NCBI GenBank assembly: GCA_043767845.1
Contig: JAYUFZ010000016.1
Span: 2,523 to 66,522, forward strand
DNA length: 64,000 nt
Source: a bacterium
Lineage (GTDB): Bacteria > Patescibacteriota > Saccharimonadia > UBA4664 > JBBRNT01
Direction: 5' to 3'
Positions 1 through 6,982 of this stretch are shown here, in pieces (the first letter of the stretch is position 1; each line of letters begins with the position of its first letter). The notes below the pieces were generated by a model that saw only the letters and a program-made list of their open reading frames with translations, was not told the origin of the DNA and made no database searches. The position numbers were made by a program, and so were the translations under genes.

Positions 1-142
1 CGGACTAACCCTCCCCGACCTGTAACCACAACGGTATCTGGAAACCGTGAATCTACAATTTGGCAGATGCTCCCAAGTATCTGCCCCAACCCAAGGTTTT
101 GATCTGGCAATCGCCGGAATAGATCAAAACATTAGGTAGGAA

Positions 143-409
143 TTATTTCTCCAGGACTTCGGAGGCGTTTAGGTAGCCGGACTTCAAGTAGTACTTGAGT
201 TGCTCCAGGAACTTAATACCATCACTGGGCAAATACGTTTTGGGTTGGCCTGCTTTACGCATTTCATTCATAACGCCGTCGGACTGCAGACTCGATACTA
301 GATCAGGGTCTCCGCTGCAGCTCACTATATTATCGTCACCGAGCGTACAGATGGCGGCTATAGATTGCTTGTAGTCGGCTCCAAGGCGATAGATTTCGAC
401 ATATTTCAT
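143..409 (-). CDS. small hypothetical protein (88 aa), immediately downstream of the kinase-like gene
   Basis: Intact ORF with AGGAG 6 nt upstream of ATG (rc of 410-423). 14-nt gap to upstream gene on same strand. No recognisable motif. Confidence 0.45.
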   Translation of the reverse strand: MKYVEIYRLGADYKQSIAAICTLGDDNIVSCSGDPDLVSSLQSDGVMNEMRKAGQPKTYLPSDGIKFLEQLKYYLKSGYLNASEVLEK

Positions 410-423
410 AGTTTGCTCCTGGA

Positions 424-1380
424 TTAATAGGGCTGATATTTGCGGGCATAAGGGCTACCACGGAATTCCTCCCATGGACGGGCACTGCCGTTTGGGTCGC
501 TGAGGCAATCCCGTAGCCAATCGGTACGGCTCTGGAAATCGGCAATCTCGTCCTCCGGTAAAAGCAGGGTAAGTTCTCTCAGAAGGCTCTGCATTTTTTT
601 ACCGTCTCCGATGGTTTTTAAGAATTCCTGGCGAAATTGTGGGTCAATCTCGGATTCGGGGTAGTGGAGGGGGTTAAACGTGCGCTGTTCCGAACCGAAG
701 CGTTCCCGGAAAGCCATACCATTATCAATGGCAATTAATCTTCCATCCTCCTGCAGGATGTTCTGGGTATGGCGATCAGTATTGAAAATCAAGCAATCAA
801 AAAGCCAAAGTTTTTGGTATTCGAGCTCGCTGACCTGAGCCCTTAGGACTGCACGACCCTTCTCTGCGAAGTCCTGCAGACTGCCAGTCTCCCCATTAAT
901 GGTGCGGATGACGGTCGGTGGCGCAAGATCAAAATCAAGCATTTTACTAACCAAGTAGCCGGCTCGTTCACGGTGGCATTGACCGCCTATTTCAGCGCTC
1001 CCCACTCGGTAGTGGTCGTATTCGCCGCTCACCGGCTTGAAGACCGCTGCGCCGTCGCCGATGAGCTGCATGATCTGGGTCGTGTTAACGCCACCACCCA
1101 GTGCTTCTACGTGTCCAATTGGCAGTTCGGTTAGCTCTTGTTCGGTGGGGCTCAGGTGGGTTTCGAATTCTGGAGGGAGCTCGGCCAGTTCCGAGAAATC
1201 TCCGTGCTGCATGTCCTCGAGGAGGTTGTGCGGCTCGGCCTCATTGCGTTTACTCAGCATGTCTTCGAGCTCGCTTGCAAGCTGGGCACTCGAAGAGGCG
1301 CTACTCTCGGTTTGCGCGGAGTCGGCGTTTGTTGATTCAGGTTGGTCGCGGTGGCCGCGGAAAAAGCCTAAGATACCCAT
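424..1380 (-). CDS. atypical kinase with PI3/PI4-kinase-like catalytic core; N-terminal ~90 aa acidic low-complexity region
   Basis: FNTDRHTQNILQEDGRLIAIDNGMAF matches the PI3K/PI4K catalytic loop (DRHxxN) and activation loop (D-F/N-G) with canonical 14-16 aa spacing. Gly-rich LGGGVNTT precedes it. Differs from HipA (DDHAKN…APAYD). Confidence 0.55.
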   Translation of the reverse strand: MGILGFFRGHRDQPESTNADSAQTESSASSSAQLASELEDMLSKRNEAEPHNLLEDMQHGDFSELAELPPEFETHLSPTEQELTELPIGHVEALGGGVNTTQIMQLIGDGAAVFKPVSGEYDHYRVGSAEIGGQCHRERAGYLVSKMLDFDLAPPTVIRTINGETGSLQDFAEKGRAVLRAQVSELEYQKLWLFDCLIFNTDRHTQNILQEDGRLIAIDNGMAFRERFGSEQRTFNPLHYPESEIDPQFRQEFLKTIGDGKKMQSLLRELTLLLPEDEIADFQSRTDWLRDCLSDPNGSARPWEEFRGSPYARKYQPY

Positions 1381-1417: not shown

Positions 1418-1495
1418 TGTTTCGAATAGAAGGTTACCTTTTTACGCAGAAGAAAGGTAACCTTCTATTTACTTTCGGTATTTGTTTGGTATAAT
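1418..1495 (+). promoter_or_regulatory. dispersed promoter cassette copy A: palindrome AGAAGGTTACCTTT-N11-AAAGGTAACCTTCT (1428-1466) + TTTACT-16-TATAAT; upstream of cmk
   Basis: Near-identical ~80-bp sequence recurs at 27375, 33300 (minus), 41323 and 51035. -10 TATAAT at 1490-1495. Confidence 0.6.
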
Positions 1496-2854: not shown

Positions 2855-3790
2855 TTAGCTTGATAGATTGGCTTTGGGGTAGGAGCCGAAGATTGTGACC
2901 TGGCAATTCTGGGTTTTCAGGATTTCGAGCGCTCTACTAAGGCTAGTATCCCCGATGCCAGCTTCAACGTCTAGGTAAAAGGTGTAATGCCAGGCGTCGG
3001 TGGGAATGGGTCGGGAGTGTAGCATGGTCATATTCATACCGAGATCGGAGAAGGCGGCCAAGGCAGAGACTAGTGAGCCGGGCGTGTGATCAGTCACCAG
3101 AGCAAGCGAGGTCTTTGTGGCTTGGCTAAGGTTGGCGGGGCGCTGCGCGTCGAGGCGGATGAAGCGAGTGTAGTTGCGGTGATGGTCCTCGATATCGGCG
3201 GCTAATATTGGGAGCTGGTGCAGATCGGCGGCTGCCTTGGATGCGATGGCGGCTTTAGCGGGGTCGTTCCAGCTTTTGACCAAGGCCACGCTGCCGGCAG
3301 TATCAGACTCCTCGATTAATTTGGCGTGGGGCAAATGTTGTTCTAGCCAGGCTCGGCATTGGCCGAGGGCGGGGGCTTGGGAGTGAACTTCATTGATCTG
3401 TGATAGCTCACTACTGGGGAGCCCGATGAGCTGGTGGTGGATCTCTAGATATACTTCGCCGGCCACCCAGGCGTGCTGTTCGCTGAGTAGGTCGTAGGTG
3501 TCGTTGATGGTGCCGTAGAGTGAGTTCTCGATGGCCACTACGGCGTGGTCGGCCTGGCCACTTGAAACTGCCTTGAAGGCGGCAGTAAAGTTAGGGCAGC
3601 CAATAAGCTCAACATCTGAGCCAAAGAGTCGCGTGGCAGCCTCGGCGTGAAATGAACCTTCTTGGCCTTGGATAGCAATTTTTGTTTTTATCATGACCGC
3701 TAGCTTAGCAATTTTGAGGATGACAATCAAGGAAGGCCCGTATGCTGCTTCATAGAGCATAAGCGTTTGAAAAAGGTCTGATCTTTTCAT
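2855..3790 (-). CDS. pheA: prephenate dehydratase (PDT domain + C-terminal ACT domain)
   Basis: KIAIQGQEGSFHAEAA … VAIENSLYGTINDTYDLL match the PDT family; ACT-like C-terminus. Probable true start at Met 3694 (MIKTKIAIQG). The first 32 codons of the ORF-track start are encoded by the 3770-3812 palindrome and are likely not translated. Confidence 0.7.
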   Translation of the reverse strand: MKRSDLFQTLMLYEAAYGPSLIVILKIAKLAVMIKTKIAIQGQEGSFHAEAATRLFGSDVELIGCPNFTAAFKAVSSGQADHAVVAIENSLYGTINDTYDLLSEQHAWVAGEVYLEIHHQLIGLPSSELSQINEVHSQAPALGQCRAWLEQHLPHAKLIEESDTAGSVALVKSWNDPAKAAIASKAAADLHQLPILAADIEDHHRNYTRFIRLDAQRPANLSQATKTSLALVTDHTPGSLVSALAAFSDLGMNMTMLHSRPIPTDAWHYTFYLDVEAGIGDTSLSRALEILKTQNCQVTIFGSYPKANLSS

Positions 3791-3812
3791 ACTGAAAAGA
3801 TCAGACCTTTTT
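3770..3812. repeat. perfect 18-bp inverted repeat AAAAAGGTCTGATCTTTT-catactg-AAAAGATCAGACCTTTTT in the pheA/manB divergent intergenic region
   Basis: Read directly. Related words (AAAAGATCTGATCTT, GAAAAGGTCAGACCT) recur at 13401-13495 and 63521-63537. Confidence 0.6.
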
Positions 3813-3954
3813 CATGGATACACCTGAAAACGCTATTACGCTTTTGCTGTCAGGGGGTAACAATGATCTGATCTTTTCTATTGCTAACGGATGGCCAGAT
3901 CGCCAAAAGTATCAGATAATGAAAGTATACAGATCGCTAATCCGGAGGGTTCTT

Positions 3955-5298
3955 ATGAAATTCGCCCAACATATTTTCAAAGCTTATGATATTCGTGGCC
4001 TGGTGCCAGATGAATTAACCGTCGAGCTGGCCTATAGTGTCGGTGTGGCATTGGCCGACTTTTTGCCAGATGAAGGCCCCGTGGGTGTCGGCCGTGATAT
4101 GCGCCCCGATTCCGCCGAGCTGGCCGAGCATGTCCGGGCTGGTCTCATCGCCCAGGGCCGCGATGTGGTCGACATAGGCCAGGTCACCAGCGACATGATC
4201 TACTTCGCCGTCGGCAAGTACGACCTGGCCGGCGGAGCAATGATAACTGCCAGCCACAACCCCGGCCAATACAACGGCATAAAGATGTGCGGCAAAGCCG
4301 CACGCCCAATCGGAATTGAGACGGGGCTAGCAACAATCCGTGACGCCATTGCCGCCGACGACTTCAAAGAACCCACTCGTATCGGTCAGATCGCCCAAAA
4401 AGATATCGTCGATGCCTGGGTTGATCACTCCCTAGGCTTTGTCGATGTCGACAAATGGCCCCCTTACAAGATTGCAGTCGATGCCGGAAACGGCATGGCT
4501 GGAGCAATTATCCCTCATCTGCACGGCAAAACACCGCTTGAAGTCACGCCGATGTATTTCGAGCTAGATGGCACCTTCCCTAATCATCCGGCCAACCCAT
4601 TGGTGCCCGAGGGCACCGCCGACCTGCGCGCTCGAGTCAAAGCCGATAAGCTGGACTTCGGGGTGGCCTTCGATGGCGACGGTGACCGAGCTTTTCTGGT
4701 CGACGAATTAGGTAACCTCGTAACCGGGGGGCAAATGTCGGCCATGCTAGCCGCTGCCTTTTTGGCTAAGTTCCCTGGCGCCAATATCGTCTACGACGCC
4801 CGTAATTCACACACAGTTCCAGAAGTAATAACTGAACTAGGCGGTAAGCCTGTAATCTCCAAAGTCGGCCACAGCAATATCAAGGCTGTCATGCGCGAGG
4901 CCGACGCACCATTTGGTGGTGAATTCTCGGGGCATTACTACTTCCGCGACAACTATTATGCCGACTCCGGATTGATCGGCGCTTTGGCTGCTATCGATGT
5001 GCTCGCTAAGTCTGGTAAGAAGCTATCTGAACTGGCTGCCGAGTATAGCCACTACGCCTCGTCAGGCGAGATTAACTCCAAGGTTGAGGATCCAGCTGGC
5101 AAAATCGAGGAGCTGGTAAAAAAATACGAGGACGGCAATCAAGATCGCCTCGATGGCCTATCCGTAAACTACCCCACCTGGTGGTTCAATGTGCGTGGCA
5201 GCAACACCGAGCCTCTCCTGCGACTTAATGTTGAAGCCAAATCCGAGGCCGAAATGATTGCCAAACGGGACGAGCTGCTCGATTTGATCCGAGGCTAA
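3955..5298 (+). CDS. phosphomannomutase/phosphoglucomutase (alpha-D-phosphohexomutase)
   Basis: FKAYDIRG N-terminal motif and TASHNPGQYNGIK active-site serine loop. ORF-track start 3814 lies inside the palindrome; MKF… at 3955 is the more plausible start. Confidence 0.85.
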   Translation: MKFAQHIFKAYDIRGLVPDELTVELAYSVGVALADFLPDEGPVGVGRDMRPDSAELAEHVRAGLIAQGRDVVDIGQVTSDMIYFAVGKYDLAGGAMITASHNPGQYNGIKMCGKAARPIGIETGLATIRDAIAADDFKEPTRIGQIAQKDIVDAWVDHSLGFVDVDKWPPYKIAVDAGNGMAGAIIPHLHGKTPLEVTPMYFELDGTFPNHPANPLVPEGTADLRARVKADKLDFGVAFDGDGDRAFLVDELGNLVTGGQMSAMLAAAFLAKFPGANIVYDARNSHTVPEVITELGGKPVISKVGHSNIKAVMREADAPFGGEFSGHYYFRDNYYADSGLIGALAAIDVLAKSGKKLSELAAEYSHYASSGEINSKVEDPAGKIEELVKKYEDGNQDRLDGLSVNYPTWWFNVRGSNTEPLLRLNVEAKSEAEMIAKRDELLDLIRG

Positions 5299-5356
5299 TT
5301 GACTGCCTATGCGGGCGGGCATAGTATTAGGCTGTTCCTACTACGGAAGGCCCTGC

Positions 5357-5653
5357 ATGAATGCTGCTTTGAATCAACGGTTCGTCCCGCTCCCACGAGC
5401 TCTCGCCCGGATGTGGATGTTGGCTGCGGCCTTGGGTTTCTTGACTGGTCTACAGCGCCAGCCCGCCTACTGGTTGGTCAACGTGCCGTTCATGCTCTAC
5501 ATAGCAGCCCATCTGCTGCATCGCCAGCCAAACAGCACCGGATCAAAGCACGATGATTCGCTGGTGAACATCGCACTATCGTTCATCGCGGTCGGAATCG
5601 TCGTCCTTTTCTGGTTCAGTATCGGCGCGTTGATCCATCGGGCCTTGACCTGA
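5357..5653 (+). CDS. small membrane protein (98 aa), hypothetical
   Basis: GGAAGG 6 nt before ATG 5357. Two predicted TM helices. Rho-independent terminator 5673-5700. Confidence 0.4.
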   Translation: MNAALNQRFVPLPRALARMWMLAAALGFLTGLQRQPAYWLVNVPFMLYIAAHLLHRQPNSTGSKHDDSLVNIALSFIAVGIVVLFWFSIGALIHRALT

Positions 5654-5735
5654 CGCTTGTGCCCCGTTGTCCCGATCATCTGATCGGGCTTCTTTTTGTG
5701 TTGGAAGTTCGCCCACTGTTCGGTAATATAACTGT

Positions 5736-6293
5736 ATGACAGCAAATGTGGCAAAACTTGGGCACAAGAAAGTCCGCGAATTGGCGCTTAGTGGCGAGGT
5801 TGTATTGGCGACGGCCGAGGGCTTGCGCCAGCTGAAGCTCCAAACCAATGCTCTCCAGACCGAGCGAAAACGCCTCGACTATGAGATAGGCGAGACGGTA
5901 AAAGATTATCCCGACTTACGCGAGAACGCCACCTACGATGTGCTCATTGCCAAGATCGACCACTCCTTGCCGCGTCAGGAGGCCGACTTGCGCGACCTTA
6001 TCCAGAAAACGCAATTGTACATTGAGAAAACCAAGGCCGACGTCGTAGCTTTCGGCTCAGTCTTTAATCTAGAGACCGTCGATGGCGATCAATCACGCTT
6101 TTGGCTCGCCGGCCCGATCGAAGCTGGCGCACAGCTTATGCAAGAAGACGCATTAGCAGTGTCGTATCTATCACCACTCGGCAAAGCCGTCTGGGGTGCG
6201 GCAGTGGGAGATGAGATCGAAGTCCGCTTGCCGGCTCGTGGCAAAGATCGCTTTACGCTCTACCGGGTTGTATCAGCTAAACGACCAAAATAA
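5736..6293 (+). CDS. greA: transcription elongation factor GreA-family
   Basis: N-terminal coiled coil plus C-terminal FKBP-like region (VSYLSPLGKAVWGAAVGDEIEVRLP resembles Gre SPIGRALIGK…GD). Confidence 0.7.
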   Translation: MTANVAKLGHKKVRELALSGEVVLATAEGLRQLKLQTNALQTERKRLDYEIGETVKDYPDLRENATYDVLIAKIDHSLPRQEADLRDLIQKTQLYIEKTKADVVAFGSVFNLETVDGDQSRFWLAGPIEAGAQLMQEDALAVSYLSPLGKAVWGAAVGDEIEVRLPARGKDRFTLYRVVSAKRPK

Positions 6294-6334
6294 TCGGCCT
6301 GATTATTAAGCTTACGCTGTGCTAAAATTAGAGC

Positions 6335-6982
6335 ATGAAAAAACAAGCAACCAAGCCTTCCGCAAAACCTACTGCCAAAGCAGTCACAAAACCTATTCCA
6401 AATAGAGCTACCACAGCAGGTACGCAGGCACTTCAAAGGAACTGGAAATTACTTATCAGTGCAGCAGTAGGGCTTGTAGCATTGTTGGTTATAACCGCAG
6501 CTTACTCACATAAGGCCACAGCGCCGGCATCGCTCGTAGCTTGCACCTCGAACTTGGCGGGCGACGTAAACCAAGTCGAATACAGCTATAGCGGAGGGTC
6601 AACCCCGCCACCTTACGGATACGTTTACCATATTGCACTCAACTGCAACGGATCTGTATTCAATATGGAAGATACTGCCAACAAACCGCTTTACCATACG
6701 ACAGGAAAGAATGATGCCGCTTCCCAGCAGATTATTGCGGCCTTGGCCATGGACTTAGCGGACCGCCGTAAAAGCGAGGTAAAGCCTGACGCGCTCGATT
6801 GCACGACTACTGTTGGTGGCCCATGGGCTTCAATTGTTCTTACGCATTCTGATACTGCCAAAACTAAATACACGATTGATCTGTGCTTATTTAAGGGCGA
6901 TGAGCGTACGGCTGCACTTGTAGACCAAATCAAGGCGCTAATTCCAGATCTCGATAGTATTGTAGCCAGCCACCACAAATAG
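6335..6982 (+). CDS. hypothetical membrane-anchored protein (Lys-rich N-terminus, one TM)
   Basis: ORF with signal-anchor. No recognised motif. Confidence 0.4.
   Translation: MKKQATKPSAKPTAKAVTKPIPNRATTAGTQALQRNWKLLISAAVGLVALLVITAAYSHKATAPASLVACTSNLAGDVNQVEYSYSGGSTPPPYGYVYHIALNCNGSVFNMEDTANKPLYHTTGKNDAASQQIIAALAMDLADRRKSEVKPDALDCTTTVGGPWASIVLTHSDTAKTKYTIDLCLFKGDERTAALVDQIKALIPDLDSIVASHHK

Follow-up and report, generated by a model that had tools for sequence, protein, structure and literature searches.

The window analysed here, a 64,000-nt stretch of contig JAYUFZ010000016.1 (positions 2,523 to 66,522 of the forward strand, assembly GCA_043767845.1) from a bacterium of the Patescibacteriota (Saccharimonadia), carries on its minus strand a self-contained two-gene operon, in which a gene for a 318-aa kinase is followed directly by a gene for an 88-aa protein, referred to below as the partner. 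As judged by profile and predicted fold, the kinase belongs to the PF00454 superfamily and is closest to the type II phosphatidylinositol 4-kinases (PI4Ks) and next to the FAM20 kinases, and the partner represents a new small-protein family that belongs to no described family. The novelty lies in the combination of a known catalytic fold with a new small-protein family in a strictly conserved two-component arrangement. Full-text literature searches found no description of the kinase family or of the kinase-partner pairing. The module comprises the following parts.

424..1380, minus strand: kinase gene, 318 aa, ATG start (open reading frame; Pfam PF00454, family profile, AlphaFold2 core and fold matches).
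143..409, minus strand: partner gene, 88 aa, ATG start, encoding a small alpha/beta protein (open reading frame; 33 homologues; AlphaFold2 model).
410..423, minus strand: intergenic spacer of 14 nt with an AGGAG Shine-Dalgarno motif at 416-420 (sequence).

Both open reading frames and their 14-nt spacing on the minus strand had been given exactly by an earlier interpretation of this DNA made without database searches (the sequence-only reading). On the coding strand the junction of the two genes reads TAA-TCCAGGAGCAAACT-ATG, with AGGAG placed 6 nt ahead of the partner ATG. Scored with profiles built from their relatives, the kinase reached 231 bits (E 2e-69) and the partner 117 bits (E 5e-35), so both open reading frames are real genes and not products of chance.

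Pairing and conservation of the module

In all of five independent look-ups that started from the partner, the gene immediately preceding it in the same orientation was a PF00454 gene. In a metagenome scan the kinase was directly upstream of 34 of 34 distinct partner genes for which at least 700 nt of upstream sequence was available, and in species-representative genomes it stood directly upstream, on the same strand, for all partner genes with enough upstream sequence (18/18). In kinase-centred look-ups, chosen only on the span of sequence available, a partner homologue followed directly downstream in 4 of 4 cases, and the more divergent kinases adjoined the more divergent partners. The two-gene module postulated from the sequence alone was borne out by these data, the small open reading frame adjoining the kinase homologues in every case examined. 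The gaps between kinase and partner, determined for 27 pairs with a placeable partner start, were mostly -13 to +34 nt and included 4-nt overlaps. Such sizes fit co-translation, and translational coupling would fit a stoichiometric complex. No kinase-partner fusions were present among the 150 best relatives of the kinase, nor was a partner-like segment found inside the giant proteins described below.

A motif scan of 185,579 reference species with the partner alignment gave 19 module loci, and the number of distinct loci after de-duplication was 52. The 132 neighbours of these 52 loci are mixed housekeeping genes with a few toxin-antitoxin (TA) or defence genes (AbiEii, SocA/Panacea, GIY-YIG), and no third gene recurs among them beyond local synteny. 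A link to nucleotide metabolism (cmk, NDK, CTP synthase, AMP phosphorylase and NUDIX genes lie nearby) was considered and rejected, since no recurrent family was found in this set. The carriers among the species-representative genomes are mostly labelled Patescibacteria (Minisyncoccia, Harrisonbacteria, Azambacteria, Paceibacteria, Parcubacteria), and the neighbourhoods of the few loci with other labels look like those of the Candidate Phyla Radiation (CPR). The module has so far been seen only in Patescibacteria/CPR-type bacteria. Several reference-genome bins (L072, L073, L077, L080 and L087) are titled 'uncultured Gammaproteobacteria' or 'Saccharibacteria' (TPA, third-party annotation); their module and neighbours resemble other Patescibacteria loci, and the labels may be unreliable.

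The two components differ in the degree of conservation. Among 47 complete pairs the mean pairwise identity was 55 % for the partner versus 36 % for the kinase domain, the partner being the more conserved in 99 % of 1,081 comparisons, and the divergences of the two were correlated (r = 0.69). At locus L027, with two kinase (K) and two partner (P) genes in the order K-P-K-P (3097-5404), the two kinases are 55 % identical and the two partners 92 %. Loci L020, L063 and L065 contain two to three kinases each (43-48 % identical) and one partner gene each in the available sequence. These four loci, L057, and L074 and L075 (both from the same Azambacteria metagenome-assembled genome) are cases in which one genome contains the module, or the kinase alone, more than once, in tandem or otherwise (K-P-K-P, K-P-K, K-P-K-K and P..K-K). 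Since the partner is conserved better than its kinase and several kinases may occur per partner, the opposite of what is usual for cognate TA or immunity pairs, the comparison suggests that the small protein is a common, constrained component served by one or several fast-evolving kinases.

Remnants of decayed modules were recognised at L066 (3836-4078), L088 (3771-4078), L067 and L068, in the form of short open reading frames that contain an N-terminal fragment of the kinase and/or the C-terminal ~25 residues of the partner. Judging by these sequences, the module has evidently been lost in some lineages.

The two proteins and their surroundings

In Pfam and NCBIfam scans, judged against the cut-off of each model, PI3_PI4_kinase (PF00454) was the sole model above threshold for the window kinase (29.6 bits against a gathering score of 27.1, E 8e-7, residues 187-261). 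The scores of Pfam HipA_2 (17.5 bits against 27), Pfam Fam20C (15.7 bits against 26.8) and the NCBIfam SCO1664 family (TIGR03843; 61.6 bits against 172.4) were below. The Pfam scan detected no further domain in the kinase, including no MuF domain and no accessory domain of phosphatidylinositol 3-kinases (PI3Ks) or PI3K-related kinases (PIKKs). The sequence-only reading had recognised a PI3/PI4-kinase core from the motif FNTDRHTQNILQEDGRLIAIDNGMAF, located at residues 199-224, and had set the protein apart from HipA. Both statements hold, the former in view of the PF00454 score and the PI4KII profile and fold matches given below, the latter in view of the HipA_2 score, with no other HipA model reported in the Pfam scan. 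The following features were assigned to the kinase.

1156..1380, minus strand: N-terminal extension, residues 1-75, acidic, Ser-rich, predicted to be disordered and not conserved (composition, low predicted local distance difference test (pLDDT) values, homologues).
481..1155, minus strand: kinase domain, approximately residues 76-300, with a five-stranded N-lobe and alpha-C helix and a helical C-lobe (secondary structure of the model; homologues align over residues 70-298).
1036..1038, minus strand: Lys115 (VFKP), ATP-binding lysine (47 of 47 partner-linked kinases; aligns with AVFKPK of PI4KII).
760..777, minus strand: catalytic loop D202-R-H-T-Q-N207 (D in 46, R in 47 and N in 46 of 47 partner-linked kinases; aligns with NTDRGNDN of PI4KII).
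718..726, minus strand: D219-N-G, with the metal-binding Asp, the equivalent of DFG (D in 47 of 47, second position N in 37 and H in 10; aligned with AIDNGLAF of PI4KII).

A word-indexed homology search with the kinase retrieved only the query itself, and an exhaustive HMMER search was used instead. It returned 1,948 cluster representatives at E ≤ 1e-3 and 442 at E ≤ 1e-10, most of them 240-300 aa long, and most of the homologues carry a precomputed PF00454 match. The window kinase is a divergent member of this group, with a best non-self identity of 38-40 %. With 1,948 representatives, and with all members whose neighbourhood was examined being prokaryotic, the initial description of the protein as rare and eukaryote-like was overstated. 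In an alignment of 61 sequences K115, D195, D202, R203, N207 and D219 are invariant and E138 nearly so, and K115, E138, D202, R203, N207 and D219 are each kept in 46-47 of the 47 partner-linked kinases (98-100 %). The conservation of the DRH and D(N/H)G residues assumed at the outset was thereby found in the homologues. Since the catalytic residues are conserved to such an extent, the kinase is probably active.

When the profile of the 61-sequence alignment was compared with solved structures, the best matches were type II PI4K beta and alpha (E 5e-18 to 1e-16), followed by FAM20A/C (E 5e-13 to 1e-11); PI4KIII-beta, mTOR and SMG1 gave E values of 0.03-0.4. The likeness to PI3K proposed previously therefore has to be replaced by a likeness to type II PI4K and FAM20 (E 5e-18 and 5e-13, respectively), PI3K being matched, like mTOR and PI4KIII-beta, only at E 0.03-0.1. 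The AlphaFold model based on the same alignment (mean pLDDT 79.8, core mostly above 90) predicts a complete two-lobed kinase, and in a Foldseek search with this model the top 12 matches were all PI4KII-alpha/beta (E 3e-9 to 8e-7), followed by FAM20, VPS34 and CtkA.

The DNG sequence had been suspected to alter metal coordination, a suspicion that the comparison does not support. The residues aligned to it are AIDNGLAF in type II PI4Ks and DNA/DHG in FAM20A and the Caenorhabditis elegans FAM20 relative H03A11.1. Since type II PI4Ks read AIDNGLAF at this position, DNG is the ordinary form of the branch and not a degenerate DFG. The expected acidic, Asp/Glu/Ser-rich and disordered N-terminus is supported by composition (35 % D+E+S and a net charge of -12 in approximately residues 1-75) and by pLDDT values mostly below 60; its length is about 75 residues and not the assumed 90. 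In the homologues the N-terminal extensions are unrelated and range from near zero to several hundred residues.

Type II PI4Ks possess a palmitoylated cysteine-rich CCPCC insert and a membrane-binding catalytic domain of roughly 380 residues. The crystallised PI4KII chains matched by the kinase comprise 384-556 residues, some of them being lysozyme fusions. No CC motif occurs anywhere in the 318-aa kinase, and its core of ~230 residues aligns with large gaps opposite the PI4KII inserts. As the membrane/palmitoylation insert is missing, the kinase is not a type II PI4K proper, and it lies outside every narrower family tested (type II PI4K proper, SCO1664, HipA_2, Fam20C and MuF), lacking the defining features of each. 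Inspection of the sequence by eye revealed no obvious signal peptide or hydrophobic N-terminus.

The partner has 33 relatives at 42-53 % identity, and the few of them with a named source come from Patescibacteria (Wildermuthbacteria, Paceibacterota). Alignments of the family show a mean column identity of 57 %, a conserved Cys pair and a near-invariant C-terminal block, DG(L/I)KFLEQLK..(F/L)KSGYLNAS, which corresponds to the following feature.

161..223, minus strand: most conserved part of the partner, residues 63-83, DGIKFLEQLKYYLKSGYLNAS, with Ser77-Gly-Tyr79 and Ser83 invariant (alignments).

The AlphaFold2 model of the partner (pLDDT 92.7) predicts three strands, a helix, two short bridges, a second helix and a final strand; the conserved part would form the helix 65-74, a loop and the strand 80-82. 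The partner was assigned to no family in scans of the Pfam, NCBIfam, PHROG and PADLOC libraries, and had no significant sequence match in the PDB and no significant fold match in the PDB or BFVD. PADLOC yielded only marginal matches (E at or above 0.002).

Relatives of the kinase domain exist in other contexts. Three Phage_Mu_F proteins (P0112, P0168 and P0177) carry a C-terminal kinase domain of the window family at ~37-42 % identity, and four giant proteins of 1,327-3,184 aa (P0035, P0162, P0113 and P0080) contain two to four tandem copies of it. P0035 contains in addition DUF4347, and the 2,892-aa P0162 contains GDPD, Abhydrolase_8 (alpha/beta-hydrolase) and a glutamine-deamidase toxin domain. 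Scans of viral contigs with P0112, P0168 and P0177 led only to loci that were unrelated or contained MuF alone, none of them with a kinase or partner, and the partner is absent from 2.9 million viral contigs. On one viral contig (L089) the MuF part is 69 % identical and is joined to another C-terminal domain (4950-6821), which fits a variable MuF cargo. Since the window kinase matches phrog_3162, a phage family with no assigned function (E 5e-6), stand-alone relatives of the kinase exist in phages. MuF proteins are described in PMC5576092 as carriers of polymorphic toxins with downstream immunity genes. The kinase toxin domains in PMC5512222 and PMC3482391 differ from the window kinase domain. 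Given that kinase domains related to that of the window are carried by phage MuF proteins and by giant multi-toxin proteins, a role of the pair in conflict is conceivable.

The module is flanked by ordinary housekeeping genes. On the kinase side lies a divergent cytidylate kinase gene (cmk), followed by genes for a NUDIX protein, prephenate dehydratase (PDT), phosphomannomutase (PMM) and a GreA-like factor. On the partner side, the overlapping Logan contig L100 (3.4 kb) carries a convergent gene for a 226-aa protein containing a sigma-70 region 4, and a Mur ligase gene. Two repeats border the operon.

1425..1469, no strand: perfect 17-nt inverted repeat (AATAGAAGGTTACCTTT / AAAGGTAACCTTCTATT) with an 11-nt loop, 45-89 nt upstream of the kinase start.
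86..140, minus strand: hairpin with a 10-bp perfect core (GTTTTGATCT/AGATCAAAAC) and a 15-nt loop, without a T-run, beginning 3 nt past the partner stop.

The inverted repeat is situated in the 194-nt divergent region between the kinase and cmk starts and overlaps the -35 hexamer of a promoter-like cmk site; it is a possible operator or hairpin in the 5' untranslated region. The hairpin is a possible operon end, and in L100 the convergent gene lies beyond it.

Possible roles of the pair

We tentatively favour a reading, plausible though far from settled, in which an active minimal PI4KII/FAM20-like kinase works on or with a dedicated small protein, the latter being either a shared substrate or an obligate regulatory or targeting subunit. 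A competent kinase of ~230 residues from the type II PI4K/FAM20 branch would be made in step with an alpha/beta protein of 88 residues, and in such a unit the small protein would be the constrained common component and the kinase the fast-evolving, duplicable one. The partner would most probably be the protein that the kinase phosphorylates, the candidate acceptor site being the invariant Ser77-Gly-Tyr79/Ser83 loop that follows helix 2; alternatively, it could be an obligate regulatory or targeting subunit. We infer a physical interaction of the two proteins, phosphorylation of the partner and a cytoplasmic location, the last because no signal peptide or hydrophobic N-terminus is obvious in the sequence.

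Several observations weigh against a substrate or subunit role of this kind. The module is uncommon and patchy (19 loci in 185,579 species), variable in position, sometimes duplicated and sometimes decayed, a set of traits seen more typically in accessory or conflict modules than in core signalling. The kinase domain also has relatives that form the C-terminal cargo of Phage_Mu_F proteins or occur in giant proteins with toxin-type domains. Moreover, since the nearest characterised relatives are lipid kinases, the substrate could be a lipid or a small molecule and not the partner.

The first alternative, unlikely but deserving serious attention, is a toxin-antitoxin or toxin-immunity pair in which the kinase would be a growth-arresting toxin, comparable to HipA and zeta-type kinase toxins, neutralised through binding by the downstream protein. 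The toxin-first, tightly coupled two-gene layout speaks in its favour, and so do the patchy distribution, variable position, tandem copies and decayed remnants, the weak sub-threshold likeness to HipA_2 (17.5 bits) and the TA or defence genes (AbiEii, SocA/Panacea, GIY-YIG) that adjoin a few modules. Further support comes from the related kinase domains on Phage_Mu_F head proteins and on the 2,892-aa protein with a glutamine-deamidase toxin domain, MuF being, according to PMC5576092, a carrier of polymorphic toxins with downstream immunity genes. The conservation pattern leans the other way: the putative antitoxin is far more conserved than the toxin (55 versus 36 %, in 99 % of comparisons), the reverse of what is usual. 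Since partner paralogues stay at 92 % identity against 55 % for their kinases, and since extra kinase paralogues have no partner gene in the available sequence, no cognate co-diversification is seen. The partner contains no DNA-binding or known antitoxin domain, and in fold it matches neither HipS or HipB nor any other solved structure. It is absent from the 2.9 million viral contigs, PADLOC gave no meaningful match and most neighbours are housekeeping genes. The toxin-antitoxin function suggested in the sequence-only reading was thus not confirmed, and its other suggestion, a signalling pair, appears to fit the comparative data better.

Rather improbable, in our estimation, is a true lipid kinase acting on phosphoinositides or other polar-lipid head-groups, with the small protein as a membrane-targeting or lipid-presenting subunit; such an enzyme might act on lipids of the host cell of the episymbiont. 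Patescibacteria depend on host lipids, and some of the hosts (Actinobacteria, methanogenic archaea) make inositol lipids, which would suit this alternative. The closest characterised relatives by profile and fold, PI4KII-alpha/beta, are bona fide lipid kinases, and one giant relative joins kinase domains with GDPD and an alpha/beta-hydrolase, which act on lipid-derived substrates. On the other hand, the kinase has no CCPCC palmitoylation motif and no PI4KII membrane inserts, its core comprising ~230 residues, and neither protein shows by eye an obvious hydrophobic or amphipathic membrane segment. No recurrent lipid-synthesis genes lie nearby, and since proteins and sugars are the substrates of the FAM20 kinases, which are related to a similar degree, the fold alone does not fix the substrate. 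A secreted effector kinase with a conserved chaperone or adaptor is the most doubtful alternative: the combination of a variable enzyme with a conserved small neighbour, as seen in effector-adaptor pairs of type VI and type VII secretion systems (T6SS and T7SS), the presence of several enzymes per small protein, the variable N-terminal extensions and the relatives of the kinase domain in delivered proteins would agree with a fast-evolving kinase that is delivered to a host or competitor and coupled by the small protein to a conserved export machine, but no recurrent secretion-system genes were found among the 132 neighbours, no signal peptide is seen and the adaptor role is purely analogical.

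In broader terms, the pair might constitute a prokaryotic phospho-switch or host-manipulation system that uses the type II PI4K fold and has not been recognised before, a proposal to which we attach little probability. If the small protein were a dedicated substrate, the 'lipid kinase' branch would have protein-kinase members and perhaps protein-kinase roots. If, alternatively, the pair were an episymbiont device for phosphorylation of inositol lipids of a bacterial or archaeal host, the small protein would be a new kind of lipid-kinase subunit. Either outcome would provide a minimal prokaryotic model of how type II PI4Ks evolved, together with a new small-protein family; were the pair a toxin system or host-directed effector, bacterial conflict biology would gain a new class of kinases. 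In the tiny genomes of Patescibacteria/CPR, much of what lies outside the housekeeping genes is unexplained, and a conserved unit of kinase and small protein offers a tractable handle on regulation or host interaction. Within the type II PI4K/FAM20 branch the kinase is also one of the smallest complete members and hence useful for studies on the minimal fold and on the way in which specificities for lipids, proteins and sugars arose. The pairing, robust and experimentally tractable as it is, is relevant to CPR biology and atypical kinases without overturning current understanding.

Comparison with known systems

Type II PI4Ks (PI4K2A/PI4K2B) are the best match of the window kinase in profile (E 5e-18) and in fold (E 3e-9) and share with it the G-rich loop, the VFKPK lysine, the catalytic loop (F/L)DYIIRNTDR..N and AIDNGLAF. 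They differ from it in that the window kinase is only ~20 % identical to them, has a core of ~230 residues without the palmitoylated CCPCC insert and membrane additions, and is prokaryotic and encoded together with an 88-aa partner which the eukaryotic enzymes lack. Kinases of the PI3K class I-III/PIKK type are more distant, mTOR and SMG1 being matched only at E 0.03-0.4, and the window kinase is devoid of their helical, C2 and FAT accessory domains.

The actinobacterial PI4K-like SCO1664 family (TIGR03843) has a similar size (~255 aa) and belongs to the same kinase branch. The window kinase scores 61.6 bits against its model, far below the cut-off of 172.4, and a Citricoccus member scores 104 bits against the window-kinase family profile. 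The one actinobacterial gene inspected, that of the Citricoccus alkalitolerans SCO1664-family kinase (L095/L096, 3313-4768), is directly preceded by a gene of the His_Phos_1 phosphatase family and has no small partner. His_Phos_1 was also encountered in 2 of the 132 neighbours of the CPR modules, and these neighbours may hint at a kinase/phosphatase pairing.

With the HipA toxins (HipBA, HipBST) the pair shares the broad kinase-like superfamily, the two-gene module with a small protein and a weak HipA_2 match. It differs from them in the HipA_2 score (17.5 versus 27), in gene order and in partner type, with neither a helix-turn-helix HipB nor a HipS-like fold, and in that the partner is conserved better than its kinase. 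Some relatives of the window kinase form the C-terminal domain of Phage_Mu_F proteins, as in MuF polymorphic toxins, but the window kinase itself has neither a MuF domain nor a phage context, and the partner is absent from viral contigs. Two adjacent genes of the co-transcribed type, a 14-nt spacer with a Shine-Dalgarno motif and conserved adjacency are also properties of type II TA or immunity modules, from which the pair departs in that the partner does not co-diversify with the kinase (55 versus 36 %, and 92 versus 55 % in L027).

The group comprising FAM20/Golgi casein kinase and the CotH-type atypical kinases provides the second-best profile and fold match (E 5e-13) and the same D(N/H)G-type motif; the window kinase is set apart from it by the Fam20C score (15.7 against 26.8) and by the lack of a secretory signal and of the FAM20-specific N-terminal segment. 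CotH is a bacterial kinase of the FAM20-like type with protein substrates encoded beside it. By analogy, the proposed kinase-partner unit would resemble CotH and other bacterial switches composed of a kinase and a small substrate.

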